A stretch of 64,000 nucleotides of DNA from an uncultured Gammaproteobacteria bacterium. Lineage in GTDB: Bacteria > Pseudomonadota > Gammaproteobacteria > JAURND01. Each line of letters begins with the position of its first letter. The first letter of the stretch is position 1. Both the position numbers and the translations under genes were made by a program. The stretch covers positions 32,001 to 96,000 of the forward strand of contig CAVQQD010000001.1 in assembly GCA_963714975.1 (NCBI GenBank), written 5' to 3'. Shown piece by piece: positions 12,266-61,709 of the stretch. Below the pieces are notes generated by a model. The model was not told the origin of the DNA, searched no databases, and worked only from the letters and a program-made list of their open reading frames with translations.

Positions 12266-12964
12266 CTATTTTTGGGTAGTGACGGTCTTTTCAAAAGCCA
12301 AACTTTTGGCCCGAACCAGGAGTTCTTGTAAGGGATTGGCAAGCGAGGCGGAATCAAATAAACACTCCCACCACGCTTGAAATAATTGAGCATCACTAGC
12401 TAACCAGCGCCATCCTACCGACGGCAGCAACCGCCCCAAGACGATGGCCCATTCCAAGCGACGGGTGACTTCCTCCGGCAAGGGCTTCTCGGTGGGCATC
12501 AGGCGATAGAACGTGGCGGGTTCTGCTAAGCTGCCGGTTAGCCAGGTCCAGCTTCCTAGGCGCTCGGTCTCGGTTTTATATAACTCCAGGGTCAGGCGTG
12601 AAAAATACCGATCGAGCCCCTGCACTAATCCCAAGCTAAACAGCGCATAGGTCCACAGCGGGTCTTGCTGGGCGATGATTTCAGCGTGAGCATGACGCGG
12701 CAGCATCACCCTACGCCTTAATTTCAAGGCCTGGATCGTGAGTTGACATTGCTGGGCGACTAATCCATAGGGCTGCCAGGGCTCGCGATTCAGGGGTAAG
12801 GCTTGGCACAATTCCAACACCCGATGCAGAGTCGTTTGATAGAGGGTGCGATATACAGCTTGGGGGGCACTGATCAAGGCCGGCAAGGCATTGACATACG
12901 GCCGGAGTTGCGGGATTTGAATTAATGCGGCCGCAGATAAGCAGGGGTGTAATTCAGTGAACAT
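12266..12964 (-). CDS. traI: TraI_2 (MOBH relaxase) N-terminal-like protein lacking catalytic His/HD motifs
   Basis: ALKLRRRVMLP..AEIIAQQDPLWTYALF; directly after traD. Confidence 0.7.
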   Translation of the reverse strand: MFTELHPCLSAAALIQIPQLRPYVNALPALISAPQAVYRTLYQTTLHRVLELCQALPLNREPWQPYGLVAQQCQLTIQALKLRRRVMLPRHAHAEIIAQQDPLWTYALFSLGLVQGLDRYFSRLTLELYKTETERLGSWTWLTGSLAEPATFYRLMPTEKPLPEEVTRRLEWAIVLGRLLPSVGWRWLASDAQLFQAWWECLFDSASLANPLQELLVRAKSLAFEKTVTTQK

Positions 12965-15799: not shown

Positions 15800-17281
15800 T
15801 TATTTTTTGGTCAAACTTCTTACTGCTCCTTTGATCGCTTTAGAACCTTTTGATGCTGCCTCCTCTGCAGAATAATATAAGGTTTCAAATGCAGCATTCA
15901 CCAAACCACCCACCGCCACCCCCATACTCCCCATCAAGCTAAACCAAAACAGGGGCGCCATAATAATCAAAGTGCCCGTGATCATATCGACTAAGCTGGC
16001 ATTGGGAGATTGATGGGCAAACCAGCTACTGCCGTAGAGGGCATTCATTAAACTGGCATCGGTCCAGCTAACTAAGTGCCAAATAAAGCTCCAGAAAATG
16101 AGCGAGAAAATAATGATGGCCCCTGAAATAACACTGGTGAGTTTATAGCTCGTAAACACCAGGACCAGCGGTAAAAAAGCATAGACCATCATCAGCAGCA
16201 GGGACTGAATAATCGGAGCGGCTTGGGCGGCGGCATAAAGCTTAGGATAAGCATCCAGTTGATGAAACCACTCCCCTAACCCCGCGGCGACATGCGAATA
16301 ACCCCAATCTCCGACCAGATCATTGGCTTTGTCATAGCCTTTGTCGGTATTGACTAACACACGTTTTAAAACGGCTTCTTGTTTTTGCTCATTATCCAGG
16401 GGATGGCGAAATTCGTCCCAAAACGACGGAGGTAAGGTGTTGGCTAATCGTATTTTCAACCCGTACTGGGGATGGGTCCACCACGTATCGCAGTGCGGTG
16501 TGCCATAGACAGGTCGAGTCCCCTCAAGATCGGCATTGATATCATCATGGGGGTTATAAGGAAACGGCCGGATGGGTTGAGTCGCTTGAAAGCTCGTGTA
16601 ATAGGTTTGTAAAAAACCGTGAGAGCCTGGCCATTCGGGATCACCGAAACCGTAGCGGTTGATTGCCTGTTGAATTCGTGAAATCACGGGAGCCTGATTG
16701 GTCGAATCCGTGAAATATTGGTTGCGGGCCGGCAGAAAACAGTCCTCTTCAAATTGCCGCACTTCTTGCCGTAACGCCGCATCCGGGATTTGGGTCATAT
16801 TGACTTGGGTAACCATGCGCCGTAAGTCCGGGATACAAGCGACCATGGTATTGGCGGCGCTGGTAATGCCCTGGGAGATGGCCATGACCGCATACCAGCC
16901 AATCGGTACCCGAATGTCACCACGGGGGAGAGTAAAGGCTTTGTCGTAGGTAGTGCCGGTGGAACCAGGATGCACCGTGCCCTTGCCAGAACATAAGGGA
17001 GTGTAGCCGACGACACTGGGATTTAAAACCAAACAAGGAGCCACGGCAAAAAGAATCACAAACAAGGTGCGGATAAAATCCACTTCCATCCGCCGCAATG
17101 AGGTACTACCGGCGTCTTTGGTTTCCTGGGATTGATAGGGCTCGGCCATATGGCGCAAAATTAGGCCAATCAGCGGCAGATAGGCCAAACCAGTTTGGGT
17201 GAGTAATTCCCAAAGTTGATTGTATAACTGCCAGCCAAGTAACGTGGTGTACAGTTCGGGATAGGATTGAACGGCGATCAT
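15800..17281 (-). CDS. traG: TraG N-terminal-domain mating-pair stabilization protein
   Basis: ELYTTLLGW..LWELLTQTGLAYLP, CDTWW, LLMMVYAFLPLVL. Confidence 0.9.
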   Translation of the reverse strand: MIAVQSYPELYTTLLGWQLYNQLWELLTQTGLAYLPLIGLILRHMAEPYQSQETKDAGSTSLRRMEVDFIRTLFVILFAVAPCLVLNPSVVGYTPLCSGKGTVHPGSTGTTYDKAFTLPRGDIRVPIGWYAVMAISQGITSAANTMVACIPDLRRMVTQVNMTQIPDAALRQEVRQFEEDCFLPARNQYFTDSTNQAPVISRIQQAINRYGFGDPEWPGSHGFLQTYYTSFQATQPIRPFPYNPHDDINADLEGTRPVYGTPHCDTWWTHPQYGLKIRLANTLPPSFWDEFRHPLDNEQKQEAVLKRVLVNTDKGYDKANDLVGDWGYSHVAAGLGEWFHQLDAYPKLYAAAQAAPIIQSLLLMMVYAFLPLVLVFTSYKLTSVISGAIIIFSLIFWSFIWHLVSWTDASLMNALYGSSWFAHQSPNASLVDMITGTLIIMAPLFWFSLMGSMGVAVGGLVNAAFETLYYSAEEAASKGSKAIKGAVRSLTKK

Positions 17282-18648
17282 GGCGTCTCTCCTTTCAGAG
17301 CCCCTTGTTGCAGGAAATCGGGGCGGGGGGTAGTTGAGCCACGAGCGCTACTTCGGGTTTGCTGCTCACGGGCATAGTGCATAAGCTGCACTAAGGTTTC
17401 GGACATCAGTTGCCGGCGCAGCTGGGCGGTAAACACCAAGGATTGCCGCTGTTGCTCGAGTTGGGTTAAAGCCAGTTCGATTTGCTGTTGGGCCGGTTTA
17501 TTGGCCGCAATCACCGGTACTTGACGGCCAGCTTGCAGTAAATCCTGAACAATCGCGGCCTTGTGCATGGCGCGTTGCAGCGCCACATTTTCGGCCAGTT
17601 TGTGGGTGACCAGCCCCTGCGACCGGGAATCCAGAGCGCGCAAGGTTTCAAGCATCTGGGGACTTAGCACTAAATCTTCGGCCGAAACGGCGAGCAGCTG
17701 TTCTTTTGACAGGGGCAAGCTGCCTTGAATCAGCGCCTGCAATTTGGCTTCGAGTAGAGTGACGCAATCCTGGCCGTTACGAGTACAATCTTGAGTTAAG
17801 GCCAACAAACCCCGGCCGGCGGCACTGCCTTGGGTCGCGAGTCCCACCACTTGCTCGCCCACCGCGTCGGTCACCCAGCGACTGGCGGCTTGTGGGGTAG
17901 GAAAGAGGGTAGCCAAGGCACTGGCCGCCGGGGCGGATTCACTCGAAGTTACCGGGCGATTGAGCAGAACGTTGTAGCCCGCTTGCACGGTATCGGCAAT
18001 CACTCGAATCGGCGGTTGGTTTTTGCCCGCGGCGGGGCCCGACACCCAGGGAATGCCGGAATGGCCGGCGTGTTGATCAATCTCAGCTTTCGCGTCATTG
18101 ATATCTTCCATTCCCGCGCCAGTTAAGGATAAGTGCTGTTGCCACTGCTCTCCGACGGAGAGAGTCGCCCAGTCGTGGTATGGATTTTTTCCTTGGGCTA
18201 TCTGTTCTTTAGCGGCTTGACAGGATTGGACCGACGCCGCGATTTGGGTTTGGGCACCGAGCAGAGCATTATTCAGTAAGTGGTACAAGGTGGGATTAGC
18301 TTGGGCTAAAAAATACATTGGCATTTGAGCCAAACTGCCGGTGGCATTGCGAATTAGCGTTTGGGTTAAGTTGGTCAGATTATCCTGCAGATGATTTAGG
18401 CTGTTCTGAATCGACAAGGCCGGATTATAGAAGCCACACTGTCTTCCCAATCCTAAATCCACTTCGGCTTTTAATTCGAGTGCTTGAGCATTCATGGCGG
18501 TAGGACGACGCAGGTCACTGGCCCCACCCAACTGATAATATAGGGCATTGGGACTTTGCCCCACCGGAATAACCGATTGGGCCAGCAGCAGCGGGCTCAT
18601 AAGACTTAAAGCGCCACTTAAGATTATTGAACTAAAAATTTTTCTCAT
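17278..18648 (-). CDS. TIGR03755 (PFL_4711) ICE protein
   Basis: LYYQLGG, QANPTLYHLLNN, GIPWV, AGYNVLLNR; synteny. Confidence 0.88.
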   Translation of the reverse strand: MRKIFSSIILSGALSLMSPLLLAQSVIPVGQSPNALYYQLGGASDLRRPTAMNAQALELKAEVDLGLGRQCGFYNPALSIQNSLNHLQDNLTNLTQTLIRNATGSLAQMPMYFLAQANPTLYHLLNNALLGAQTQIAASVQSCQAAKEQIAQGKNPYHDWATLSVGEQWQQHLSLTGAGMEDINDAKAEIDQHAGHSGIPWVSGPAAGKNQPPIRVIADTVQAGYNVLLNRPVTSSESAPAASALATLFPTPQAASRWVTDAVGEQVVGLATQGSAAGRGLLALTQDCTRNGQDCVTLLEAKLQALIQGSLPLSKEQLLAVSAEDLVLSPQMLETLRALDSRSQGLVTHKLAENVALQRAMHKAAIVQDLLQAGRQVPVIAANKPAQQQIELALTQLEQQRQSLVFTAQLRRQLMSETLVQLMHYAREQQTRSSARGSTTPRPDFLQQGALKGETP

Positions 18649-18659
18649 ACCAGGTTCCT

Positions 18660-19634
18660 TTAATGAATGACCGTGCGACCTAAGTACTGACCTGGGGCTT
18701 CAAGACACCCTTCATAGTGGCGCCACATCACCCAGACAGTGCCACCCTGTGCTTTAGCCGCTAACTCTTCCCCGTAGTCGGCCGTTTGTCCGAAGATTCG
18801 GCACTCCCCTTCTGGCTTCGGAGTCAGCCTTTGCCAGCGCGTGTGTGGGTGATTTTCTTGAATGGTGGCCGCGGTACAGGCGGCCCCGCATTGGGTAGGC
18901 AGAGGTTGAAATACATGCCCAAAGTGATTGGGGGCCGTTAACAGGTGTGTGGCCCGAAAGCCAATCACGGCAGCAGCCTTGGCTTCGTTATTGGAGACCA
19001 CTTTACCCTGGTAGGGAAACACTCCACCCCAGTGAATCAGGCCTAGATTTCCGATTGTATGAGTAATGTTTTGAGCGACGGCATCGGCTTGTTCCAGGAA
19101 GATTGAGGCCCAACGCCTCGCCAAGACAGACTATCGAACATCGATTGAAAATATGGCCTGCCGGGCACGGCCGTCGACGGCAACAGCACCGGGTTTTGCG
19201 GTAATAGGACTAAGGCCGGATTGCCAATGACATCGACTTCTTTGAAAAATACAGCCGGGCTCTGGGGCGTCTAACCGATGCTCTCCCCACCCGCGGAACC
19301 TGAGCTCGCCTCAAGAGTTGGTGTTGGACGAGTCGTCCCCCTGATCGAGGGTTTGATGAATTTCTTCCCAGGCGTTGCCGCCTTTTCGGTCATTGAGGGA
19401 ATCAAACACACTGACCACGACATCGGGAAGAAAATGCGCAATATACGGAGTAGTCAGGGTCGTGCCACTGGGACTTAACCAATAACACAAGCCTTTGACT
19501 TGGTAATGCAGGCATTGAGGTAAGGCACTCAAAGTTTTTTCGGTAATATCCACAGTGGTAAGACTGGAAGCGGAGAGACAAACAAGGGACAATCCAAGGA
19601 TTATCACCTGGCATTGGTTAATTAGCTTAAACAT
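18660..19634 (-). CDS. TIGR03756 (TraU-like) ICE protein, frameshifted
   Basis: CLHYQVKGLCYWL..HFLPDVVVSV; WGGVFPYQG; WVMWRHYEGC. Confidence 0.85.
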
Positions 19635-20021
19635 CGCAAAAGACCTTATACAATTTTTATGTCACAAGGATTTTTCAATCTCAAATTCGCTACATTTATA
19701 CTAGAGTAAAAAGGAAGAACTATGAGATAAGATAGAAATTAAGGCTATTAAAGATGGGCTTAACAGCGATTTTCTAAAATAATGTAATCATTTCAGTACC
19801 TAATAAACAAAATAAATACCAATTAAAATATATAAATTATTTTTGCAGCCAACACAGAAAAAAAACAGGCATCTATGACCTATTTTTTGGAAAAATTCCT
19901 CGAAAATGCTCATGCACTCGCATGTACACCACGCTTTTCCAAATATTTTTACTTTAAGCCAAGCTCATAGTTGCCTATTTTTACCAACTTCAACAATATG
20001 GATGAAGTATTACTTATTTTT

Positions 20022-20393
20022 TTATAAAAGTACTTCTTCACAAAATATTTCTGTAGTTATTTCCCATATCACCGGTTCTGGTATTTCAGTGTCATGTTCT
20101 GGGTTAAAATTTTTCAGTTTATTATTAATATGATTTTGTATTTTTTTTAGTGATTCTTCTAGTTGTGACGGTGTACAACCCTCAAGGGACTCAATGGCTA
20201 CTTTAGGTACAACGATCTTTATTGTCGGTGATTTTTTATTCAGTCTTTTGGGGTCATTATTTAAATTCCAAAACGCTTGGCAGGTGAATTCCTTATTTTT
20301 TTCATTAGGTGCAAATTTACAATTATTAGAAAAATTACATTCTTCCATGGTTTTCATTAACTCTTTATAAGGACTTTTTTCTATACAATTCAT
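20022..20393 (-). CDS. Hypothetical AT-rich protein inserted in the tra operon
   Basis: AGGAG RBS; intact 123-aa ORF. Confidence 0.55.
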   Translation of the reverse strand: MNCIEKSPYKELMKTMEECNFSNNCKFAPNEKNKEFTCQAFWNLNNDPKRLNKKSPTIKIVVPKVAIESLEGCTPSQLEESLKKIQNHINNKLKNFNPEHDTEIPEPVIWEITTEIFCEEVLL

Positions 20394-20575
20394 ATCTAAA
20401 TCTCCTATTAAATTAATTAATTTAATTCACACATTACTCATTCATAACCATTTTAGTAGTCCCTGAAATATAAACAACAATAATTATTAATGCATTTAAG
20501 CGTTATAAACTATAAAACAAGCAAAGCTACACAATAATTCAAAATAAAGTTCGATACACTCGTAACTCATTTTTT

Positions 20576-23244
20576 CTATTTCAATGTAGATATAGTCATC
20601 ATCTGCTGAGCTTGATATGCTACAGCTTCTAATTCCGTACATCCAAATTTAAGCATCAGTTGCCTACGGGCATGTTTTTCATGCTGTTCGGTCGCAGCCA
20701 TGGCCAAATAGAGCCGCGGCGGGACCGAACGAAATAAACTGCTAAGCTTGGGGCTAAGCAACACCCCTTCGGTGTACTGACCCCTCGCTTTGCGGGCCGA
20801 TAAAAATAACTGGCGTTGTTCGCGCGTTAAGGGTTTGAACTGTTCGATCTTAGCGATTTCATCGGGGGTCGAGCTCAAGCACATCCAGGTTTCGATCATA
20901 CTCAGCATCTTGTGGGCTTCTTCAGCAAAGTCGGTCATATTTTGCGTGGCAATCCACAGCCACCAGCCGAGTTTGCGTCCCATTTTGGCACCGCGGGTTT
21001 CTAAAGCCGCTAACAATGGCACTTTACTGAAAATATGATTTTCATCTAAAACCGAGATCAAGGGGCGGTTGGAGTACTGATTGGCCTCGGCCAGGGCTTG
21101 GATTTTGTTAAATACTCCACAAAACGCAATGGCGCGTTGGGCTTCGTAGCCTTCTTGGGCAAATAAGCCAAAATCCACGACCGTGATATCTGCTAAGGGC
21201 CAGGGTTGGCCTTCGGTATTAAAAAACTGCGCGCCCAAGGGGTCGCGAATAAAATAGCACAGACCATCAGCCATCTCCCGACTGCGGCGGATTTTGTCGC
21301 GCTCACGCAAGGGATCTAAGGTGCTGCTGACCCGCTCTAAGGCTTCGACGATATCTTGGGTAATGAGCTGCGTTCGCTGTTGCTGACGAGCCTGTTCCGC
21401 CGCAGAAATAATCGCCTCCATCATCAACAAGCGATCACAGCGACGAATCCGCTGCTCTTCTTTGGGTTCGCCGCCGGTCATCATCACTAAGGCCGCTAAG
21501 ACCATATCGCCTAAGATATCGCGGGTCATGGCCCTCAGATTCTTCCAGCAGATCGGCAGAGTACCTGTTCAGGGCGAAGCGCCGCCAGTTGATCTAGCAC
21601 TTTTAAGCCGTCGTGAAAAGGATTTAAGGAGACCGGATGCTTGGGATCGATTTTGACTTTGTTGACCGATAGTCCTAGGCTGTGACAATAATCGGCTAAT
21701 AAATCAAAGGACCCCCCGGCATCTAGAATAAAAAAGCGCGGGTTGTATAAGGCCAGATGATGCAGGATCAAAAAATTTAAGGTGTTGGATTTTCCGGTGC
21801 CGGTTTCTCCCAGCAATAAAAAATGCGCATTTTTAGTCCGATCTTGCAGCAGGTCATAGAACCAGGGCTCCCCTCCCCGATTAAACATCAGCATCCCCGG
21901 AGTACCCGTCCCGCGACTGCGCCCATAGAACGGCAGTAATTTGGCCACATCACTCAACACCACATAGCGCGAGCGATAGTGGTATTTCCGATCCAGGGCA
22001 AAATCATAATTCATCGGCAAATAACGCAAATACGCATCACTCGGAAATAATTCCTGGTCGGTAATGATATGAAAGCCGTGGCTATTCAATAACACCTCGA
22101 CCTGGGCTTCGCGTGCTTTTAATTGCGCTAGGTTCTCACCCCGCAGATAAACCGCCAGGGTCAGGGGAATTAAATAGTCGCCCTCGGCCATTGCGGTTTC
22201 GGCCTCCTGTACTTCAGTTTTGACTTTAATGGCTAAGGCATGGTGTCCCACCGCACTGTGTTGAATCTGTTTTAAATGCCAGGCGACTTCGCTCGGCGCT
22301 TGCAGCACTAAGGTGAGAGACAAGACACTGCCTTCAGGGAGATGGTCGATCAGGGTCACGACCTTCTGATCGGTGGAACTGGCCCGCTCGGCACTCAAAT
22401 GGCCAATGGTGGGATTGCTGCGGATACTTTGGATGGTCAGCACTTTGTGCGGCATCCCGTCAAACAGCCAGCCCTCGGCACAGGATTCCGGGTGCGGAAA
22501 AAAATAACTGTTCGCTCAAATTCCAGGTCATGGGTTTATTTTCGGCATCGGGATAATGAGATTCTAAAGACCGTTTGGGATTAAACCAGCGCACGAGCCA
22601 CTGGTAAAAATCACTTCCCATTAGGCGTTTGACGCCTAAGCCACAAGCCCGCCATTGCGCAGCAAGCTTCTCGGCAATGCGCAGGATTTCGGCGACGTCC
22701 TTTTCCCGTTCGGGGAGGGGTTTAGTGTCATGGCAAGGCCGGTAAAGGACGGCATAGATGTGCCACTGTCCTCCTTGAAAGGCACATTGAGTCACATCAG
22801 TATCCACAAAAATACCGCCCGGTTGACTGACGTAATCTAAGTGGGTTTTTAGAGTATTGAGATGGGCTTGGACTAAGAGCGTGTCGCGTCGCGCTCAGGG
22901 ATTGCTTGGGTCACCTTGTCCAGCACCCAAGATAAATTGCTATCGCGTTGCACAAAAATTTGCAAAATCCAGGGATGGTCCTTTTCAAACGGAATGGCGT
23001 GTTGCAAGGCATTTTTCAAGGACTGATGAATCGCCTCTAACATCTCGGGAGGACGGGCTTCACAGGCAACGGGGGTAATTTCAAAGCCAACCCCCAGGCT
23101 GCATAAATCTTGCAGTAAAAAAACCTGATGAGCTTCGTGATAATCACGCCAGGGCAGCCGATGAGCCAGCGAAGGATGCTGCGCATAACTGCACGCGATA
23201 TCGGCCCTTGAAATTCGAGCACTTGTGCGTCGCTTAAAAAACAT
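20576..23244 (-). CDS. VirB4/TraC-like conjugative ATPase (TIGR03744), frameshifted
   Basis: FNRGGEP, Walker A GETGTGKS, DAGGSF, LDENH, KMGRKLGWWLWIATQ. Confidence 0.92.
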
Positions 23245-23299
23245 AGTCTGTTCAACCTGAAGAAATGAATGGTAGGGATGGACTGCAGCAAATCACTGA

Positions 23300-25030
23300 C
23301 ATCCCCCAGCACCCGAGTCTAGAGTGCCCCATGCTAGGATATTGATACCAGGAAGACACGATCATTTCGGCTTTAAGCTTAAAAATTAAATAGCGGTATA
23401 CAGATTGATGGCAACTGATCAAGACCATGCCAAAGCCAATCCCCTCGAGTGTCTCTTTACTCCAGAAGAGTTATACCTTAGAATCCTATTATTAACGGCG
23501 CGGCAGAATTACTATTAGATCACATGAGAGATTAATCAGCGCTACGAAGAATATGAAAAAAATCAATGCGCATTGGCTGAGATTTAAGTGACCACACGGG
23601 CAATTCGCAGTCGTATTGCCCCATTTGAGCGAAATTATCGAGTTTGTTTTGATCAATCACTACACGGAGCCAACTCCATGATGACGAAGAGCCAAGAAAT
23701 CTTCCGAAACAAAGCCAAAATTGCGGAATATGCCAGAGAATGTGGCATTGAAAAATTTTCTTACATAAACCCATTTTGGACGAAAACTGGAAAGAAAATG
23801 AAACGTGTATTGGATGATTAGCACGAATTTAAATTTGTTGATTAAAGAACAAGAAGATAATCACAGTTCAAAACTGGGCAGCTTAATTACCGATAAAGGA
23901 AATCACCATTTTCCAGCGACGTTATTCCCCAAGATTTGATGCGACCAGATTGGTGAACAGTATCAGCGATCCCACGGATAGACAAGCCACTCCGCTATTG
24001 AAGCGGCTATCACTTGTGCAGGAATTAACCGAAGAGCCGTTATTGAGCATTCATAAAGGTCAACTTGCATGCTAGCATGTAAGACAATCGAAAAAATAGC
24101 ATCTTCTGACAATGTACTAATCGAAAGAAGCAAGATCCAGAATTAGTACATGCCATAGTATGAAAAATCCAAAAGAAACATGAAAGCCGATAAAAAACTA
24201 GTCAACTGGTAATGCCGCGATATATTTTGCCCATAAAAATAAGAAAGCCACCACTCATAACGGGTCAGTCACCCTTTTGATGCGGCTTGCGAACTAAACC
24301 ACCTGCTGTTCTAAAAGTCTGATCGGTTGGAACCAAAACGAGTTAATTCAACTCACCTATACCTAGGGACAATACGGAAAACCCTTGTCATATGAGCGCT
24401 TCTTATATTTAATAGGCCCAACTAATTAGCATCAATTAATACTCAAAAATTTCGGAATAGCAACTACAATTGGATTAGTGCAATTTTAGGTTCTTCAAAG
24501 TGCGAAATTATTTATTTGACTTGGAAAGGGTCAGAAAAAATAATCAAGACACAAAATTGGTATCAAACTTCCATAAAAAATGATTTTAAAGAAGCATATC
24601 TGGTATTAAAACCCATCTGCAGACTTATCCATTATCAGAAGAACCATATTTAGGGGAGCGCATCCACAATAAGAGTGTTAAACTGATCAGATAAAAAATG
24701 ACGGAAAGATAATTTTTCCGTCACTTTCTCAGTTCAAACATCATTAGGGCAATATTTTACCTAATTGTATGATCGAATTTTTTTCTCGAATTGCCTCCAA
24801 TGATCAACAACAAAGATAGCTTTAAGGCAAACTAATTTTTTATCTTAGTTTACCAATTATCGAAATCAGTGGTCATTTAACTCGACTAACTCAGTAATAA
24901 AGAGTATTCTAGACCATGAGAGTTAATATCACCGGGTGATGAAATTACTTAGTCCATCGAAAACAGCGATTAGTAATTAATTCTGCCCTAGATTTCGAGA
25001 AATAATCAAACGAATTTACAGTAACTACAT
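23300..25030. other. AT-rich insert with decayed ORF fragments between the lipoprotein and ATPase genes
   Basis: Drop in GC content; only short broken ORFs. Confidence 0.5.
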
Positions 25031-25031
25031 T

Positions 25032-25400
25032 TTAATTGTTATAAACATTAACTGTAATGATCCTGCGCATAAACATAAACACCGTTTCATACCCTGGGAT
25101 TGGAATTTGGGCATTGCCTGCTAGATGCGGATACACATACATCATCAATTCAGGATTGGGTAATTTTCGAAAAGCAGAGGTATTTTCTAGTGCGGTCCTC
25201 TTAGGTTCTTCGGTGATTAATGGAGTCGTTAATTCTTGTGCCAGTGATCTTGCGGGTTTAGGTTCTGCAGTACGGGATGGCTCAACCGCCTCATAGACTT
25301 GCTCCATGGTCGGCCCCTGGTGCGGGACGACATTGCCAACATAACTTTGACAGGCCGCAAGATTAATCCACATCAAGGGCATCAGGTAACGGATGCGCAT
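25032..25400 (-). CDS. TIGR03751 conjugal transfer lipoprotein
   Basis: Lipobox LAAC; GPTMEQVY; KLPNPELMMYVYPHLAG..PIPGYETVF. Confidence 0.88.
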   Translation of the reverse strand: MRIRYLMPLMWINLAACQSYVGNVVPHQGPTMEQVYEAVEPSRTAEPKPARSLAQELTTPLITEEPKRTALENTSAFRKLPNPELMMYVYPHLAGNAQIPIPGYETVFMFMRRIITVNVYNN

Positions 25401-26595
25401 AGGTAATTTTCCTCCCGTTGGGGTCATAATCAATGGTAATTTCTTTTGCAAAATTCACGACAATGCGTTGGGGCTCGCCATTGGGCTTTAGGGTGGGCAC
25501 AAACACCGCATCAAAGGAATTCTCGACGCGGTCATGCCACCACGCTTGGACTGACTGCGTGGAACGGCTCAAAGCCTGAGCGGCGACATAAGCACTGTGT
25601 GAACCCGTAACCGCTTGGGTGTTCTGACCCACCAGAGCATTGCTCGTGGTGGTTTGGGCTGAAGCATAGGCGTTGGCGGCGCCTTCAGCCGCTCCCAGTG
25701 CTACATTAATCCCTAAATACGCCGGAGCATTAGTGATGAGTTGGCCACGAATGGCGGGATTGCCATATTCATCGGAGAGATAGCCCAAAGCATTTTCTTT
25801 GGTGAAATGCCCAATATTATTGTCATTGGAGGTGGTGGTGGAAATCGTGCCATCGGCAAAGACAAAGGTCAACGAGGTGACCCAGCCCCGGGTACTGACT
25901 AAATTTAAATCCCCTTCGGCATAGCCACTGACAATGAGTTGCCGTAAATTCGGAACCCGCAAGCCATTGGCCGCTAAGGTGTCATCGGCAAATACAATTT
26001 TAAAGGGATAAGGGTCGGTCACCACGCCTTTAATTGGAATCCGGCCAATCAGGGGCGACATGAGGCGATCGTGCACCGAAGTCGCATTGGCGGGAATGGT
26101 GTAGTAAGGGAGCGGTTTTTTCAAAGCGACGGAATCCGTCAGGGGTGGTATCGCGGCCGCCTTCAGGCGGGGATCGGGCCATTCTTCGGTCACATCTGAC
26201 ACCAGGGTAATCGGTTTAGCAGCTGAAAGGTTGGGTTCGCTGACGGAGCGGGTATTGAATTGGGCTTTGAGTTGTTCGATTTGTTGGGTAAGTTCGGCCA
26301 CTCCCTGAGGCTTTGATTCCAGTTGGTGTAAGAGTTCCTGGTTTTGCTGTTGCAAGCTTTGGTTTTGGGTCACGATGGCTTGTACTTTGTGTTCGGTGGC
26401 GGAGAGTTGGGCGGTTAAGGTATCGAGAGATTCGGCCGCACTGTCTTGGGAGGCGGTATTTTTGGTCGCTGTCGGCAGAGGTACCAGATCAGGAGCCGCG
26501 TGATGCAGTAGTTTTTGGGTGACTGTTACAGCCAAAATAGCGATCAGCAGCGGAACACCCCATTTGAGTAATCGATTGGTTTTATGTGCGGCCAT
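25363..26595 (-). CDS. TIGR03752 (PFL_4705, VirB10-like) protein
   Basis: YTIPANAT..LIGRIPIKGVVTDPYPFK..LAANG; IDYDPNGRK. Confidence 0.9.
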   Translation of the reverse strand: MAAHKTNRLLKWGVPLLIAILAVTVTQKLLHHAAPDLVPLPTATKNTASQDSAAESLDTLTAQLSATEHKVQAIVTQNQSLQQQNQELLHQLESKPQGVAELTQQIEQLKAQFNTRSVSEPNLSAAKPITLVSDVTEEWPDPRLKAAAIPPLTDSVALKKPLPYYTIPANATSVHDRLMSPLIGRIPIKGVVTDPYPFKIVFADDTLAANGLRVPNLRQLIVSGYAEGDLNLVSTRGWVTSLTFVFADGTISTTTSNDNNIGHFTKENALGYLSDEYGNPAIRGQLITNAPAYLGINVALGAAEGAANAYASAQTTTSNALVGQNTQAVTGSHSAYVAAQALSRSTQSVQAWWHDRVENSFDAVFVPTLKPNGEPQRIVVNFAKEITIDYDPNGRKITYAHPLPDALDVD

Positions 26596-27447
26596 GGCAC
26601 CTCGTCAGACTCTCGTTAAAGCCTTGCTTGGAAATTAAGAATAAGGTCGTGCTATCGCCGGTTTTATCTCCCGCGGATTTCAAAGTACGACGCGGATATA
26701 GGCTCGCGGCTTGCCACGTTCCGCAGAGATCCCGGTCTAAATGCAGCATCGTGGAATGCGCCCAAGGATTGCGTAATTCCACCGCAGTAATCGTGAGCTC
26801 TTCATGCGTCCAGGAAGCGATGGGGTGGGCCAAAACCGTCTCGGGATAGAGCAAGTGACTAACCCAGAAAGAGTATGCATTGGCGTGCGGATAAATCCGG
26901 TTTCTGAGACGACATGGTCCAGTGTATACAGCTGTTGCCAAGCCAAGCGCAGGGCCTCAACCAAATCATCCGCTTGGGAAGGTTTTTCGGTAGCGTCGGG
27001 TGAATCCTTAATCTTATCGGCATTTTTGTGATTTTTGGCATTTAAAATCCTAATTACTTGGCATTTGGCATTGGCCTGATCAGCAGTTTCAATATCCACT
27101 AACATGATTTTTTGGGAATCCTTGAGCAGGATAGACAGGCGCGTGCGCGGAATAGCTTTTAAAGCGGTCAAATAGAGGCTGCGGTCATGGTTAATGATCC
27201 GCAATTGTTCGGTGGTCAGGTGCCCAGCCAAGTCCACTTGCACCGGCTCGGGAAAGATCACCCGTTTTTCCTGGGCTAGGGGCAAGGGAATGAGAATGGG
27301 GTCGCCTTGCCACTGCAACGGCTGATTGGATTCTATAGGAGTCGCCTCCTGCAAGGCGTGGATTTGCGTGTCAGTTAAAGGCAATACCGGGGCGACCCAG
27401 GACACCGAAGAAAAGGTCAATAGCACGAGGAAAAGGCGTATGTTCAT
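26582..27447 (-). CDS. TIGR03749 (PFL_4704) protein, frameshifted
   Basis: WQGDPILIPLPLAQEKRVIFP; AWQQLY; ITAVELRN. Confidence 0.85.
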
Positions 27448-28083
27448 GGGAGCAAGCTTCCAAGGCAGGCGTTGCGGAGGAGACACATATCCGGCCAGGA
27501 CCAATCCGTAGGGGTTGCTGCTGGGAGAGACATCATGACGGGTAATTTTTAACGGATAGCGAATGACCGCCTCTTTCACCCGTTGGTCGTTTTTATATTC
27601 TTGCAGATGCATGGTTAAATCCACTTCCCAGGTTGAAGCACTTAATTTTTTCACGGAACGGGAATCGAAGGCCGCTCCAGCGAGACCTTGCATAAAACGT
27701 TGGCGTTGGCTTTGACCACTGCGGCTTAATTCCTGGACTTCGCGCTTGAGGACCGCCTGAAATTCGGGCGTCAAGTAAGCGGCATAAGTGTGTAAGTGAT
27801 TTAAAGCCTCAACACTGCCATTGCTGGGCCAGTGATTGAGCTCTTGCCAGAGTTCATAAGCAAAGCTGTACAGAAACGGCTCGGGAATGTCCTGGGGATT
27901 GAGGACCGCACCCTGGTGCAAATCCGGTGGCAGGTAGAGGCGTAATCGTGAAGGAGCAGTCATCCACCCCAGCAATAACAGTAACACCAAAAGTAATAAC
28001 ACCGCGATGCTGTATTTTTGGAACTGAATCACCGCGACATCGCGGTCCTCTTTTTTCCAAGCGCTAAAGAAGTAATTTTTCAT
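27444..28083 (-). CDS. TIGR03746 (PFL_4703) protein
   Basis: APSRLRLYLPPDL, FAYELWQELNHW, YLTP, NPYGLVL. Confidence 0.88.
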
Positions 28084-28134
28084 CAGACTTGTTGATCCTA
28101 TTCGACACACATATCTCATTTAAAACCCAGAGGA

Positions 28135-29766: not shown

Positions 29767-31478
29767 CCTAAAAACGGCAGTTGAAGGACTTCCTAACCGA
29801 TAAAACTCTGATCAAATATCTTCCAACAAAGTACCTTTTTTTCAATTTTATGTGGGTGCTGATAAACCAAGTGGTGGCTGCAGCGACTTTCCATTTAAAT
29901 ATTTTCCTACTGCTTGGCTCAAAATTCGATACCAACATTGATCATGTGTTAACTGCTCCGCATCTTTTTTTAATCCTTTAAAAAATTTCACCACGCGGCT
30001 TAATAACATTTGAACTTTATTAATATTTCCATGCGTGCTGCTGATAACAATGTGTGTTTGTCTTGCATGGACAGTTTGTTTTGCCATAGCATGCAATAAT
30101 AAGGGACGACTCGTAATAGCTTCTAAATGTTTGTCAGGTTCTGCCAGGCGAGCAAATATATTCCACCAATTATAAATAAGAGCAACCACGCGCGACATAA
30201 AGCGGCAACGCTTCATGTCTTGGGTTGTAAACCCGCTCCAACCCCATTGATTTTTCAATTCATCAAATATATTTTCACTGTCCGCACGATCGCGATAATG
30301 TTGCGCAATAGTCAGTATTTCATCCGGTAATGAAGTAACTAATACAGCGTATTCATAAACATAGGTTTTATCATCAACCTCACCAAAACATATCTCTAAT
30401 TGTTTTGTTCCTGCATGTTGTGAAATAAGCATTAAATTTTTTTGTATTTTTTTTCTCAACACGATGACTCGACGCGATCTTTCCCAACCATCTAATTTCA
30501 ATAAGGCATCAGTCCCTTCCCAGCCCTGATCAGCAAAATACCAATCTTGACGAACCATTTTTACTTCTTCTATTAAACGCTTTACATTCTTCGTTGATTT
30601 CAATTTAAATAAATAGGGTATTTGCTTTTCTTCAGCAATTTTCATCACACCATCTGTACCAAAAGCACAATCACCTCGCAAAAATTGAGGCCACTGTGCA
30701 CGCGGAATACGATCTAATAATTCCCATAAATCAGGCGCCGAATAACTGGATGCCATTTGATTACCAGGCTGTACTTCAACATCCAGTACTAAACGTAAAT
30801 TGGCGATAAAATAGGAATGATAGGTATGAGAAGGGCGGCCAGGTTTTGTTGGATTATAACCCAATACAGCTCCTTCCTGTTTTCCATAAAGTACTTTAAC
30901 TGTGGTATCAACATCTAATATCCATGGCACACTCAGCAATGGCACATAACATTTATTTAAATGTTTTTGTAGCCATACTATTCCAGCTTCTTCTTCCATT
31001 TTTACAAAAGCACGCCGGAGTGAATCTTCACTCACTATTTTTTTCATACCCAATAAATCTGGATTTACTCCATCACAACGCAATGTAGTGATATGAGCAT
31101 AGCGACTATGACCTGCTAAAACAGCTAATAACAGCGTACCTAAAATGTCACGATTTGAAGGAGCGTTGGGACTTACTAATTGCAATGGACAATCTTCAAC
31201 CCAAGGGTCAAATAAATTTCCAATCTTTAAAAATTCAATAAAAAATGCCAATTGTCCTAGCGGAGTTACAGCAGCTTGAGGATCCCATTCCACATAGATG
31301 CGACCACCAAAAGTATCTAGGGCTAATGAGACATTTTTGGCTAATAAATTTTCTTCTTTTAAGTCTTCTGGCAGTTCACCCGTTGGGTGAAGAGGAGCCG
31401 GAGGTAGTTTCATGCGATTTCCCCTGTAATTTTGTTATAAGGGTCGCATTATCTCATAGTTCAACTGCTTTTTTTAGG
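29767..31478 (-). mobile_element. IS1380-family insertion sequence
   Basis: 19-bp TIRs CCTAAAAACGGCAGTTGAA (17/19 match); 5-bp TSD ATCAA at 29762-29766 and 31479-31483. Confidence 0.92.
29848..31413 (-). CDS. IS1380-family transposase
   Basis: ILDVDTT..GYNP, LRGDCAF, YRDRADSENIFDELK. Confidence 0.92.
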   Translation of the reverse strand: MKLPPAPLHPTGELPEDLKEENLLAKNVSLALDTFGGRIYVEWDPQAAVTPLGQLAFFIEFLKIGNLFDPWVEDCPLQLVSPNAPSNRDILGTLLLAVLAGHSRYAHITTLRCDGVNPDLLGMKKIVSEDSLRRAFVKMEEEAGIVWLQKHLNKCYVPLLSVPWILDVDTTVKVLYGKQEGAVLGYNPTKPGRPSHTYHSYFIANLRLVLDVEVQPGNQMASSYSAPDLWELLDRIPRAQWPQFLRGDCAFGTDGVMKIAEEKQIPYLFKLKSTKNVKRLIEEVKMVRQDWYFADQGWEGTDALLKLDGWERSRRVIVLRKKIQKNLMLISQHAGTKQLEICFGEVDDKTYVYEYAVLVTSLPDEILTIAQHYRDRADSENIFDELKNQWGWSGFTTQDMKRCRFMSRVVALIYNWWNIFARLAEPDKHLEAITSRPLLLHAMAKQTVHARQTHIVISSTHGNINKVQMLLSRVVKFFKGLKKDAEQLTHDQCWYRILSQAVGKYLNGKSLQPPLGLSAPT

Positions 31479-56985: not shown

Positions 56986-58370
56986 TTATTTTTTAATGGT
57001 TAAAAAAACGGTGATACACCCACAGAAAAAAGCTAAGCTCGCAATAATCAGGCTGCTATGCATCCCGCTAATAAATTGCCCTGAGCTAACTAATGCGCCA
57101 AAGATAGCAACACCTAACAGGCTGCCTACCTGACGGCTGGCATTGAGTGCACCTGAGGCTATTCCTGCCCGGTTTGAGGGCACGGAATGAACAGTGGCTA
57201 CGGTTGCTGCTGGCATTGTAAATGCAATACCAAAACCCAGCGCCGCAAGTGGTAAAATTAACATCCAATAAACTGGACCGTGTTCTCTTAGAATCAACAA
57301 GCTCAAAAAACCTAAAGCACCTACAATTAAACCAATCAGCATGGGTAATTTAGCCCCTACATAACTGGTCATCTTGCCGCTGAAATAAGAAGCGATTGCA
57401 ACTACACCTGTCATTGGTAGCAAAGCAAATCCAGTTGCCATGACAGAATATCCACGAATCTGTTGAAAATACAGTGGCAATAAAAACAATTCCCCATAAA
57501 AACTAATGTTTAAAACCATACCTATTGCGATTGCAGCAGAAAATGTTTTGATTTTAAAAAATTTTAACGGAAACATTGGTGAGGGTGTGCGGTGTTCTAT
57601 GAGTAAAAAAATAACGAACGTCACAGCAAAAACAATCAGATTGGCTATGACCATACCTGAATCCCAGCCAAATCTACCCACCTCAATCAGACTAAATGAT
57701 AAAGCAGCAATGCTGATGATAGAAAAAGCCTGTCCCCAAAGGTCAAAACTGATTTTACGATTACTGTTTTTTGCATTAACCACATATTTAAGTGTTAAAA
57801 ATATCCCAATTATTCCAATAGGAATATTAATAAAAAATATGGCGCGCCACCCAAATACTGTGGCCAGAAATGCACCTAAAATCGGCCCTGATGCAGCCGC
57901 TATACCTCCTGCGCCTGCCCATATTCCAATCGCTTTAGCGCGCGTTCCTGTAGGTTCTCATAAGATGCATTAATAAGCGCTAATGATGTGGGAACCATCA
58001 TAGCTGCTGCCACACCTTGGAATAAGCGGAAAATAGTCAAAACTAAAAAATTACCCGCCAACCCGCAACCCAGGGCAGTCAGTGCAAATAAGAACAAACC
58101 CCAAATAAACCTAGGTTTAGCGCCAAATTGATCCCCCAGGTTGCCTGCTGATAATAATAAACAAGCAAAAGTTAAAGCATATCCAGCTACAACCCATTGC
58201 AAATCTGCTATGCTGCCGTGCATATCATGTGCAATGACTGGAAGGGCAACATTGATGATGGTGGCATCTATGATGACCATGAAAAAACCAAAACATAAGG
58301 CAATTAACGACAAATGTTTTGAAGATTGTTTGTGTGGGGTAGATGGTGCTGTGTCCATATTATTGCTCAT
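56986..58370 (-). CDS. MFS DHA2-type efflux transporter, frameshifted
   Basis: FMVIIDATIINVALP, LQWVVAGYAL, WRAIFFINIP, RQVGSLLGVA. Confidence 0.92.
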
Positions 58371-58659
58371 ATCCTAATAGATTTTTTAATGACTGCAGGC
58401 CTTCCGTGGTAGGCACGATCACCCGTGATTTGGTTTTAGACCCTTATAACCCAGCGACAGAAAACTTCTAGGTCATAAATCGGGAAGGATTACCACGCAT
58501 TACTCGGGTGGTGAAATTAGTAATCTGTTGGAAGTAGCAAATAAAGTGTGTGTGTGAGAGAAGAAGGAGTAGCCCAGTGGTGAACCAGATGAAAATGATC
58601 AAGTTTGACACTAGCTCCCACAAAACTCCAGCACTGAATTTTGCTGGCGGAACGTTTCC

Positions 58660-58935
58660 GCGCGCAAATCCTTCTAATTCGCCAAATAGGGGAAAAATCT
58701 CTAGTGGTGCATTCCAAGAGCCATCACCGGCATAAACGACTATGGGTATTACCAAGGGTAAATCACTGCCTGGGTTTTGTTTTAGATGGAGTTCAATGAT
58801 GCGAATAATATAGACCAGTAACCGAAACGCCATCATAGGATCCACGGAGGACTGTTGCTCAACGAGGGTGTACAAATATGCAGCTGAATTTCCAGCTTTT
58901 ACAGAATAAACTATATTAGCTTCAGTTAAACCATC
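58660..58935 (-). pseudogene. Rpn/YhgA-like nuclease/transposase internal fragment
   Basis: IVYSVK..YLYTLVEQQS..MAFRLLVY..LPLVIPIVVY. Confidence 0.8.
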
Positions 58936-59394
58936 ATCAGAGACTTCTAATCGGTTTTCTTCTTGTCTGTGCATAGCGATTAAATCATCCAATCTCCTAA
59001 CCCATGGCTGTAATATTTTAATCGGTTCAGGAGTTGGTTGCCATAATTCTGGGCCTATCAACTTACAAAATCTTGCAATTAATTTTGCATCAAGAATATC
59101 ATTTTTAGAGCGGGCTAATTCACTTTGAGAAAATCCTTTAATTCTCGCAGGATTAACAACGCTTATAGGGATTTCTTGAGCATAAAGAAATTCGGCTAAT
59201 GCCTGCCCGTAAATACTGGTTGCTTCCATACAAGCTTGAGACAACACGATTTCCTTCTGGTTTAGCCATACAAGTAATTTATTAAAGCCTTGCTCGTTAT
59301 TGTTGAATTTTTGAGTTTTTATCTTATCTTCCATTAGCACAGCTACATCAAATGTATTTTTACTGATATCAATGCCTAGAAATGCTTTCTTCAT
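58936..59394 (-). pseudogene. IS110 recombinase, N-terminal RuvC/DEDD part only
   Basis: LGIDISK, CMEATSIY, VVNP..IKGF, KNDILDAKLIARF; lacks the C-terminal Tnp domain. Confidence 0.92.
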
Positions 59395-59427
59395 AGTAGT
59401 ATCCTACATGTTGCGAATAGCTTGGAT

Positions 59428-59605
59428 AGCTTTATTCGGACCAACCTTGTGAATACAGGATCATTGATATTTACCTCAAGTCCTAAGATACCGTCCGGTC
59501 TGTATGAATAAAGTACGGGGTAAATTGCTAAAATCTCCTCTACAGGCTTAATGCCTTAGGAAGTCACCGGCATATTTACCCCTATCCAAGTGCCCTTGGA
59601 TATTT
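59428..59605 (-). ncRNA. IS110 bridge RNA (predicted)
   Basis: 5' hairpin plus target-binding and donor-binding stem-loops; left target guide TGACTTCCT equals the flanking sequence; right donor guide ACAAG is complementary to the element end. Confidence 0.85.
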
Positions 59606-59659
59606 AACCACATTGAGTGATTGGAATTAAGATACAAGGAAGTCAAAACACTCACCTGC

Positions 59660-60249
59660 CAAACTGGCCATAACATAAATATCCAGCTGTTATCATCAAT
59701 AATAACCCCATGGTAAAATTAAAGAGTCGTAGGCGAAAATGATTTTTTAATAAATACGACATTTTATCGCCCAAAATTGCCCAAACGCCAAGTGAAATAT
59801 AACATACAATAAAATAAATAATGAGTAAACGTTAAAAACGGATCATAGCTTTCTGCGCTAGAGAAGATTGAGGCTCCAGATACGCAAGCAATCCATGCTT
59901 TAGGATTTATCCATTGGAGTAAAAAACCTTCGTAAAATTTGGGGATATCATTTTTTCTTATTTCCAACTCTGGTTTTGAAAAAGCTATTTTGTATCCCAT
60001 ATAAATAATATATAACGAACCTACAATCGCTAAATAGGTCAGAAAAAATGGATATGCATTTATAAACCGCGAAAATCCGAATCCAATAAAAAGCAATAAT
60101 AAAGTAAATCCTACGGTCGCCCCTGACACATAAGGGATGGTTCTCTTTACTCCATAACTAATACCAGAGGAAAGAATAATCATATTCACAGGCCCTGGTG
60201 TAATTGACATGACCAAAGAAAATGAAACCATCGCTAATAAAAGTGTCAT
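59660..60249 (-). CDS. LysE-family translocator, frameshifted near 3' end
   Basis: SITPGPVN, GFLLQWINPKAW. Confidence 0.9.
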
Positions 60250-60270
60250 CGCTATTTTCCTGTGTAAAAA

Positions 60271-60699
60271 TTATTTTAATAATCCCATACTACCCGTAAA
60301 TTTATTGACGACTTTCATTTCGCCATACAACGCTAACCCTAGATACTTTAAGTGCTCAATCGGGGTGTTTTCATATTGATGAACATAGTCTGCATAATTT
60401 TTAGTGGTTAGGGTTGCATTAATTAAATCAATCACTGTTAGGTCAGGTTCATAAGCTTTTACTGCTTGGCGCATCTCTTTAAGTAACAGCTTGCTGCCTT
60501 TTAAAATTGGGATGGCCATAGTCGTAATTCCATGATGGTTATCTCCCGCATTATCTTTGTGGTCCTGACCGAGAATTTCAGGAATCATCTTACCTAAGTT
60601 AATCGATAGTATCGCTGCCGTATTTGCAATAACACCAACGGGTAAAAAATGATCAATCACAATTACACATTTCTTGGTGGATAAGTCTTTGTTATTCAT
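60271..60699 (-). CDS. DUF2000 family protein
   Basis: KCVIVID..GVIANTAAIL..HHGI..IPILK..VNKFTGSMGLL. Confidence 0.85.
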   Translation of the reverse strand: MNNKDLSTKKCVIVIDHFLPVGVIANTAAILSINLGKMIPEILGQDHKDNAGDNHHGITTMAIPILKGSKLLLKEMRQAVKAYEPDLTVIDLINATLTTKNYADYVHQYENTPIEHLKYLGLALYGEMKVVNKFTGSMGLLK

Positions 60700-60811: not shown

Positions 60812-61709
60812 ATGATTGATGAATTACGGGCATTGGCCATCTTCGCAAAAGTGGTAGAAGCAGGCTCATTTCGTTCAGCAGCAAATGCGCTAAAACTTTC
60901 GCCTTCGGTTGTGAGCCACCATGTGGCACAGCTTGAGGAGCGACTGGGCGTTGCTTTGCTTTATCGCTCCACGAGACGACTTTCCCTTACTCATGAAGGC
61001 GAAAAATTATTCATGAGTGCAGAAGCAATGTTATCGGCCGCAGAAAAGGGGCTTAATAGCGTTGCATACCACGCCACGGAACCCACTGGTAAATTAAACT
61101 TGACTCTCCCAGCCATGCTCACAAGAAGTCCGCTTGTTGGTGACATTGCTGCATTTGCCAAGGCGTTTCCAAAAGTAGCGCTTTCAATAAGTTTTAGCGA
61201 CATACAACAGGATTTAATTCGGGAAGGCATCGATCTTGCGATTAGAATAGGCAGACTTAAAAGATAGTGGTTTAAAATCTAAACGACTCTTTACTATGAC
61301 ACGTAAACTCGTCGTTGCTCCTGCTTTAATGAGCGAGCATAAGTCTCCACGACGGCCGCAGGATTTACTCAAATGGGATTGGATTGGGCTCAAAATGCGT
61401 TCAAATACCAAGAAGTTAATCAATCAAAAGGGCAAAACTTGTTTAATCGATTTTGAACCAAGAATCATCGTCGACAGCATGGATGCTGTTTGCCAATTGG
61501 CCATTGCTGGATTAGGACTAGCAACTCCGCCTGCGTTTCTTGTGGCAGAAGATATCCAGCAGGGATATCTTGTTGAACCTCTACCTGAATGGCAGGCTGA
61601 ATCCATTCCTGTTTATGTTGTATGGCCACCCAATGCTTCTAAAGAATCTCTGACATTTAGATTTATGGCGTTCCTAGAGATGAGAAAAAAATCTTATTTG
61701 AGCCTCTAG
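60812..61709 (+). CDS. LysR-family regulator, frameshift near 61260
   Basis: FAKVVEAGSFRSAA..LEERLGVALLYRSTR; DLAIRIG. Confidence 0.92.

Follow-up and report, generated by a model that had tools for sequence, protein, structure and literature searches.

A predicted IS621-type bridge RNA of an IS110-group element, with guides that match TnpB-element ends and the element's own termini

Introduction

RNA-guided insertion by IS110-family elements has been described for IS621 of Escherichia coli. The target-binding loop of the IS621 bridge RNA carries the left target plus the core on its 5′ side (8-9 nt), while its 3′ side pairs with the core and the right target (4-7 nt) (PMC11208160). As a rule, left guides read like the top strand including the core and right guides are complementary to the core plus the right flank, and for the right donor a discontiguous pairing of nine bases on seven has been described (PMC11208160). 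A junction promoter that spans the joined ends has also been described for IS621 (PMC11208160; PMC13626964 section 5). Durrant et al. 2024 (PMC11208160) predicted bridge RNAs in the thousands, and the known targets of the family include REP sequences, attC sites and inverted repeats of the Tn21 family (PMC11208160; PMC11187229).

Here we compare with these systems a locus of an uncultured Gammaproteobacteria bacterium whose genus has no other representative in the sampled genomes. Its assembly comprises 2.56 Mb in three contigs (C1, C2 and C3) of 42-45% G+C, and we call "the window" the whole stretch of 64,000 nucleotides that was analysed, C1:32001-96000. A sequence-only reading of the window had proposed that a bridge RNA lies upstream of a truncated IS110 recombinase gene and that its target guide matches its own insertion site. 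We find it highly probable that window positions 59426-59622 (minus strand) encode a bridge RNA of the IS621/ISCro4 type, located in the left end of a 1225-bp IS110-group element.

Results

A predicted bridge RNA precedes the recombinase gene

Reading the minus strand downward from 59649, the sequence runs TTTTGACTTC-CT, then TGTATCTTAA, after which 242 nt without coding sequence precede the ATG at 59394. Every feature listed in the sequence-only reading was recovered on the minus strand at its position. The features of the region, all on the minus strand, are the following:

59637-59646: left target half plus CT core (T-TGACTTC-CT), immediately outside the element; this motif also forms the tips of empty right ends of TnpB elements
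59629-59634: TATCTT, predicted -10 hexamer of a circle-junction promoter whose -35 partner, TTGACA, lies in the right end
59426-59622: predicted bridge RNA of about 197 nt, supported by the constrained fold, covariance model R1, matches in relatives and pair counts; the limits are predicted, the 5′ end from the -10 box and the 3′ end from the last stem
59606-59622: further small hairpin
59583-59602: 5′ stem-loop of 8 bp, from the fold
59517-59582: target-binding loop and closing stem, from the fold and from pair changes in helices 3 and 4
59558-59566: left target guide UGACUUC-CU, identical to the top strand across the left flank and the core
59535-59540: right target guide GAGG-AG, complementary to CT-CCTC; CCTC is the right flank in 4/4 intact copies
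59426-59516: donor-binding loop and closing stems (helices 5-8), the best-conserved part in relatives
59486-59494: left donor guide ACGGUAU-CU (ACGGTATCT), equal to the last 9 bases of the intact copies
59446-59454: right donor guide AUUCACAAG, complementary to CT-TGTAT (core plus first left-end bases) with a 2-nt bulge
58926-59394: recombinase remnant, about codons 1-156, with the DEDD/RuvC-like domain kept and without the Tnp domain and catalytic serine
58468-58925: YhgA/Rpn-like (PF04754) fragment fused in frame to the remnant, profile positions 56-134, unique in the genome

The closing stem of the target loop is formed by GGGGTAAAT and ATTTACCCC, at 59574-59582 and 59517-59525. Within the loop, TGACTTCCT at 59558-59566 recurs at the element junction (59637-59645), where TGTAT follows, and AU at 59533-59534, after the right target guide, occupies the position of the IS621 handshake guide. 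ACAAG, in the right donor guide, was found at 59446-59450. A 206-nt stretch of the left end reached a folding energy of -62.1 kcal/mol (z = -3.75), and none of 200 shuffles gave an equally good fold. The constrained fold was computed with the four guide segments kept unpaired. A scan of 58300-60300 against Rfam 15 (E up to 10) returned no relevant match, its only two hits being at chance level (Yfr21, SAM_alpha); because no bridge RNA model answered, we do not count this result against the bridge-RNA reading.

The intact copies of the element encode a 321-aa protein that matches the solved structures of ISCro4 (9t56; E 1.7e-73, residues 4-315) and IS621 (E 9.2e-72, full length), as well as the profile NF033542, "IS110 family RNA-guided transposase" (238.6 bits, cut-off 140). 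Both PF01548 and PF02371 were found in it, in line with a DEDD RuvC-like domain and a Tnp domain with the catalytic serine. In 4/4 intact copies, residues D9, E57, D99, D102 and S238-G239 align with IS621 D11, E60, D102, D105 and S241-G242, an alignment that allows for an inferred two-residue offset of the deposited chain; these IS621 residues are the catalytic ones as named in the cited portion of PMC11208158. The IS621 layout recognized in the sequence-only reading is supported: the pairing agrees with the guide rule of PMC11208160, and the recombinase is homologous to those of both IS621 and ISCro4.

Insertion junctions across the genome fit the four guides

The search for full-length copies, suggested along with the sequence-only reading, was productive. 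Besides the truncated window copy, the genome carries four intact copies, referred to as C3a, C3b, C2a and C2b, and a left-end remnant:

C3 329120-330344, minus strand: intact copy
C3 from 467741: intact copy
C2 from 654160: intact copy
C2 from 1202801: intact copy
C2:270038-270080: left-end remnant of about 35-40 bp, behind TTTGACATC-CT

The remnant marks another decayed insertion, at an A-type site. The intact copies have an open gene of 321 codons at element positions 243-1208, and 17 bases remain past the stop codon.

First, in 4/4 intact copies the right junction reads ACGGTAT-CT followed by CCTC, and ACGGUAUCU forms the last nine bases, as the left donor guide demands. Second, the left flank is TGAC(A/T)TC-CT at 4/5 junctions and GTCCTTC-CT at the fifth. 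Third, CT is present at both junctions of all four intact copies and a longer duplication is absent. In addition, removing the 1225 bp of copy C2b leaves an ATG and 11 codons that read on in frame through 328 or more open codons, and this restored reading frame fits a simple insertion that repeats CT only. From the four right junctions we therefore derive TGAC(A/T)TC-CT-CCTC as the target and ACGGTAT-CT-TGTAT as the donor. The sequence-only reading had arrived at the target TGACTTC-CT-CCT(C) and the donor AC(G/A)GTAT-CT-TGTAT from the loops alone, with no right junction in sight, and the junctions bore out both predictions. The left target guides compare with the left flanks of the five copies as follows:

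Window copy: left flank TGACTTC-CT, guide UGACUUCCU, 9/9 positions
C3b: left flank TGACATC-CT, guide UGACAUCCU, 9/9 positions
C2a: left flank TGACATC-CT, guide UGACAUCCU, 9/9 positions
C3a: left flank TGACATC-CT, guide UGACUUCCU, 8/9 positions
C2b: left flank GTCCTTC-CT, guide UGACUUCCU, 6/9 positions, all adjoining the core

When a metagenomic relative (L069, see below) is included, guide position 5 is mismatched at 2/6 junctions, namely those of C3a and L069. These guide-allele patterns come from few junctions and are suggestive only. A covariation of guide allele and flank at position 5 was considered and set aside, with agreement at 4/5 junctions in this genome and 4/6 with L069, which are too few.

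The repeated 9-mer could in principle reflect chance, a target-site duplication or an ordinary structure of the 5′ UTR without any guide role. Nine-mers do recur by chance at times: TGACTTCCT occurs three times in the window against 0.52 expected, and 2/100 shuffles also reached three. However, a duplication would flank both ends, which CT alone does, and the four right junctions contradict these readings. Moreover, at homologous positions of the loops there are four distinct guide segments that agree with their sites, and in relatives guides and sites change together. We regard such an origin as practically negligible. For the guide interpretation, the position of the repeat is a stronger argument than its count, as the same loop columns match the own flanks of related elements.

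The 11-bp match to the target at window 12466-12476, which the sequence-only reading had thought possibly due to chance, is indeed present. It continues with CCGG, not CCTC, agrees at 11/13 positions, is unoccupied and is not a TnpB end; we treat it as either a near-cognate site or chance. The sequence around 12400-12560 appears richer in G+C than the bridge-RNA region.

Two side observations concern the distribution of such elements. A second, different IS110-family element of about 1210 bp is present in four identical copies (C2:68805, C3:402875, C3:459877 and C3:520644), 3/4 of which have the same repeat as their right flank, with a short palindrome across the junction. Among plasmid records, only AP029037.1, AP029038.1, CP008939.1 and CP008937.1 have DNA similarity to the 1225-bp element (67-74% over parts), and their hosts, a Rickettsia endosymbiont of an insect and Candidatus Paracaedimonas acanthamoebae, are both intracellular bacteria.

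Relatives conserve the predicted fold and carry guides for their own sites

A covariance-model search had been proposed as a check on the RNA. Model R1, built from five copies of the left end, matched upstream of the recombinase gene, on the same strand and just before it, in 41 of 48 related loci (42/46 matches). These loci come from other genomes, mostly of cyanobacteria but also of two enterobacteria, that encode relatives with 36-55% protein identity. The part matched in most of them was the donor loop (model positions 138-197).

In the alignment of relatives, which was fitted to model R1 and so favours the structure, 93.0% of cells were paired and 38/57 pairs had changed on both sides. 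Controls in which the partners were slid by 1-3 columns gave 21.6-42.9% paired cells and 11-16 both-side pairs, and the observed pairing values were reached by 0/500 shuffles. Helices 3 and 4 of the target loop showed both-side changes in all 16 of their pairs, the target loop being covered by about 7 sequences only.

The guide columns of relatives were then compared with their own flanks; two of the four relatives examined were informative. In the columns of the left target guide, L036 has TACCCGGCCT and L038 has ATTATGCCT, each equal to its own left flank. The right junction of L036, ACAGTAT-CT followed by ACA, fits both its own left donor guide (A for G) and its right target guide. The left donor guide of relatives, ACAGUAUCU, matches their own ends, ACAGTATCT, with an A where the present element has G. 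In L049, guide and flank did not agree at the element boundary that the model implies, and L035, cut by a contig end, starts 2 nt before its left end.

An exact-pattern scan of metagenome contigs with a 26-nt string from the donor loop gave 0 matches. The metagenomic relative L069 has 76% protein identity, and its RNA scores 242 bits on the model. Its left flank, TGACGTC-CT, agrees with the guide UGACUUCCU at 8/9 positions. Its right flank is CCCC with the guide GGGG-AG, compared with CCTC and GAGG-AG here, so that the change is matched on both sides, and its target-loop stem carries compensatory changes in two pairs.

The predicted home site is the tip of a TnpB-element right end

In 3/4 intact copies, the right flank runs, in the same orientation, into a repeat of about 1.3 kb that encodes on the opposite strand a 402-aa TnpB (PF01385, PF07282, PF12323). 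In TnpB orientation, this repeat ends with a hairpin (8-bp arms) followed by AG-GA(N)GTCAA, and the IS110 element sits at the AG, 8 bases from the tip. Repeats without insertion read TTGAC(G/T)TC-CT-CC(C/T)C. The right target half, CCTC, opens the 8-bp hairpin (CCTCGCCC / GGGCGAGG) at 3/4 occupied sites; the hairpin is absent at C2b, which is inserted in an unrelated gene at a site that shares CTTC-CT-CCTC.

Neither guide allele has a perfect, uninterrupted target anywhere in the genome, and the only three sites with one mismatch and a CT core are all empty right ends of TnpB elements. A T at position 3 of the right target half was found at 4/4 occupied sites (3/3 at TnpB ends) against 1/4 empty full-length TnpB right ends, which is the predicted direction but, with such small numbers, is suggestive only. 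Since 0/30 related genomes (8 from its family, 22 from its class) matched the element or the C2b flanks, our comparison of empty and filled sites concerns paralogous empty sites inside this genome only. L069 sits at the same place in a TnpB-element right end, its TnpB protein being only 46-48% identical, and the fetched flanks of the other 74 related loci contained no TnpB gene. On the basis of these sites, the element is predicted to prefer, as its natural target, the right-end tip of TnpB (IS200/IS605-type) elements.

The same arrangement could arise by hitch-hiking, that is, if a composite TnpB element that carries the IS110 element had moved or been duplicated as a unit, with no RNA-guided choice of site. 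Three of the four intact copies do adjoin the same TnpB repeat in the same orientation, and with an insertion 8 bases inside the tip the repeat formally contains the IS110 element. However, the IS110 copies differ from one another at 2-9 of 1225 bases, and those of C3a and C3b at 7 of 1225, whereas an alignment of the TnpB repeats beside these two copies has 64 mismatches and 26 gap columns over a length of about 1330. Because the repeats are far more diverged than the IS110 copies, the C3a and C3b insertions are independent and were not copied along with the repeat. The outer flanks also differ between copies, C2b lies in an unrelated gene at a matching site, and the 76%-identical relative L069 combines the same position with a distant TnpB and a matching guide change. 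We therefore consider hitch-hiking very improbable.

Two further observations were made at TnpB ends. A weak Rfam match to HgcC (28.2 bits, cut-off 50) at L059 137-234 (minus strand) on C1 falls on the tnpB 3′ end and the TnpB right end, where the IS110 target lies. An internally deleted, short version of the TnpB repeat (C1:120404-120585) has the tip TTGACTTC-CT-TGT, after which the repeat resumes; as TGT is how the IS110 left end starts, this tip may be the scar of a lost IS110 copy, or chance.

RNA-guided targeting of TnpB ends raises the idea that this IS110 lineage is specialised on another RNA-guided element and parasitises TnpB elements, with coevolution of guide and target. The variation of TnpB tips appears to be tracked by small changes in the guides, with A or T at left position 5 here, and A at the right here and G in L069. 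The insertion, 8 bases inside the right-end tip and between the terminal hairpin and the end, should separate the element boundary from the 3′ portion of the TnpB guide-RNA scaffold and from the transposition hairpin, which would disable the host element. We put this forward as a tentative possibility, on the doubtful side. The titles, abstracts and text passages of the papers searched held no report of an IS110 element homing to a TnpB-element right end.

The window copy is a relic with an intact RNA sequence

Homology of the window copy to the intact copies stops at element position 711, which is window 58926. The recombinase had been described as truncated, and rightly so: Pfam finds the DEDD domain only, plus the unrelated YhgA-like piece. 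The 222-nt RNA region, by contrast with the gene, is undamaged; it is identical to that of C3a and differs from that of C2b by one stem base, and because of this the window RNA brings no new specificity.

In intact copies, TTGACA overlaps the stop codon in the right end, and its 17-nt spacing to TATCTT exists only across the joined ends, as is also the case in L069. A sigma-70 junction promoter is thus predicted to be rebuilt in the circle of the intact copies. Because its right end is missing, the window copy cannot rebuild this promoter. On the minus strand of 59300-59800 we found no sigma-70-like site, nor was there any terminator-like site in the same interval. Judged by its sequence, the window copy is a relic whose RNA sequence is intact and which is predicted neither to excise nor to rebuild the junction promoter.

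The sequence-only reading had concluded that the RNA could act only in trans. Such an orphan RNA might be expressed by read-through from the upstream LysE-type gene, work with an intact recombinase and so aid transposition. A LysE-type gene does lie upstream on the same strand, 59300-59800 holds no terminator-like site, and the RNA region is undamaged. According to the cited portions of the sources, trans action of the bridge RNA works for IS621 (PMC11208160), and read-through from linear IS621 copies yields low RNA levels that suffice for excision, where trans action could not be excluded (PMC13626964 section 5). However, the window copy has no promoter of its own, the LysE-type gene is itself shortened (profile match to position 143 of 193), and C3a and C2b carry the same target guide, so that any contribution would be redundant. 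Action in trans is possible but a weak proposal, and we judge that the window copy is unlikely to aid transposition in this way. As a relic, it would be at most a low-level source of RNA, by read-through.

The surroundings of the relic contain other incomplete genes. Three neighbouring genes, for an MFS transporter, a LysR regulator and a LysE-type exporter, are split or shortened (window 56986-58370, 59652-60249 and 60812-61709). The MFS transporter is divided between two ORFs that match Pfam profile positions 1-120 and 125-346, the HTH and substrate domains of the LysR regulator lie on two ORFs, and the LysE-type exporter ends at the profile position given above. These broken genes reflect either gene decay or frameshift errors of the assembly. 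Elsewhere in the window, genes of an integrating conjugative element (TIGR03755, TIGR03752, TIGR03746/03749) were found at 15800-28119, 3661-5067 and 29848-31413, with IS4- and IS1380-family transposases near them.

Discussion

In all likelihood, the locus is the bridge RNA gene of an IS110-group element, with guides for the target and for the element's own ends, of which the window holds a relic copy. The first loop would read the target and the second the joined ends of the element, ACGGUAU-CU and AUUCACAAG pairing with ACGGTAT-CT-TGTAT. The RNA and the DEDD/Ser recombinase would then bring the circular element and the target together, with strand exchange expected at CT by analogy with IS621.

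Our understanding of bridge recombination is unchanged by this element. What it offers is a naturally occurring bridge RNA for which the donor is known and the target is defined over 13 bases, together with two natural guide alleles in the genome, a third in a relative, and both occupied and empty sites in one genome. Such natural sites also lend themselves to the study of mismatch tolerance, two of the occupied ones disagreeing with the left guide at position 5. The predicted home site at the end of a TnpB element adds a minor novelty to what is known of targeting among mobile elements, and if an IS110 lineage had truly specialised on TnpB ends, nature would have provided an example of parasitism between two RNA-guided elements.

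With IS621, the element shares the domain order, the catalytic residues and the CT core, as well as an RNA in the left end in which a 5′ hairpin is followed by the target loop and then the donor loop. A promoter split over the joined ends is also common to both, as is the asymmetry between a long left end and a short right end, which here extends 17 nt past the stop codon. The donors are nearly identical, ACGGTAT-CT-TGTAT here and ACAGTAT-CT-TGTAT in the IS621-like relatives L035 and L036. In contrast, the proteins are distant (E 9.2e-72 over the full length), the enterobacterial relatives being 44% identical, and the target guides differ, IS621 using REP sequences as its target (PMC11208160, cited portion) where the present element uses the tip of the TnpB right end. 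The "different specificity" previously claimed for the guide therefore holds relative to IS621, but not within this genome, where the intact copies C3a and C2b carry the same target guide. ISCro4 (9t56), the best protein match among solved structures, is likened to the element by protein sequence only.

Two other systems invite comparison at the level of the target. ISPpu10 of Pseudomonas putida also has a stem-loop at its target, which the cited portion of a preprint reports as an added specificity element; there, however, a 5′ extension is involved, whereas here the hairpin lies to the right of the core, and C2b inserted without it. The IS1111 group with its seekRNA (e.g. IS4321/IS5075, which target transposon ends) has the recombinase family and RNA-guided site choice in common with the present element, and some of its members target the ends of other mobile elements (PMC11208160; PMC11187229, cited portions). 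It differs in having the RNA downstream and subterminal inverted repeats, while the RNA lies upstream here, which is the layout of the IS110 group. Taken together, these comparisons indicate an element that is predicted to work like IS621 and that differs from it in its target guide and its home site.
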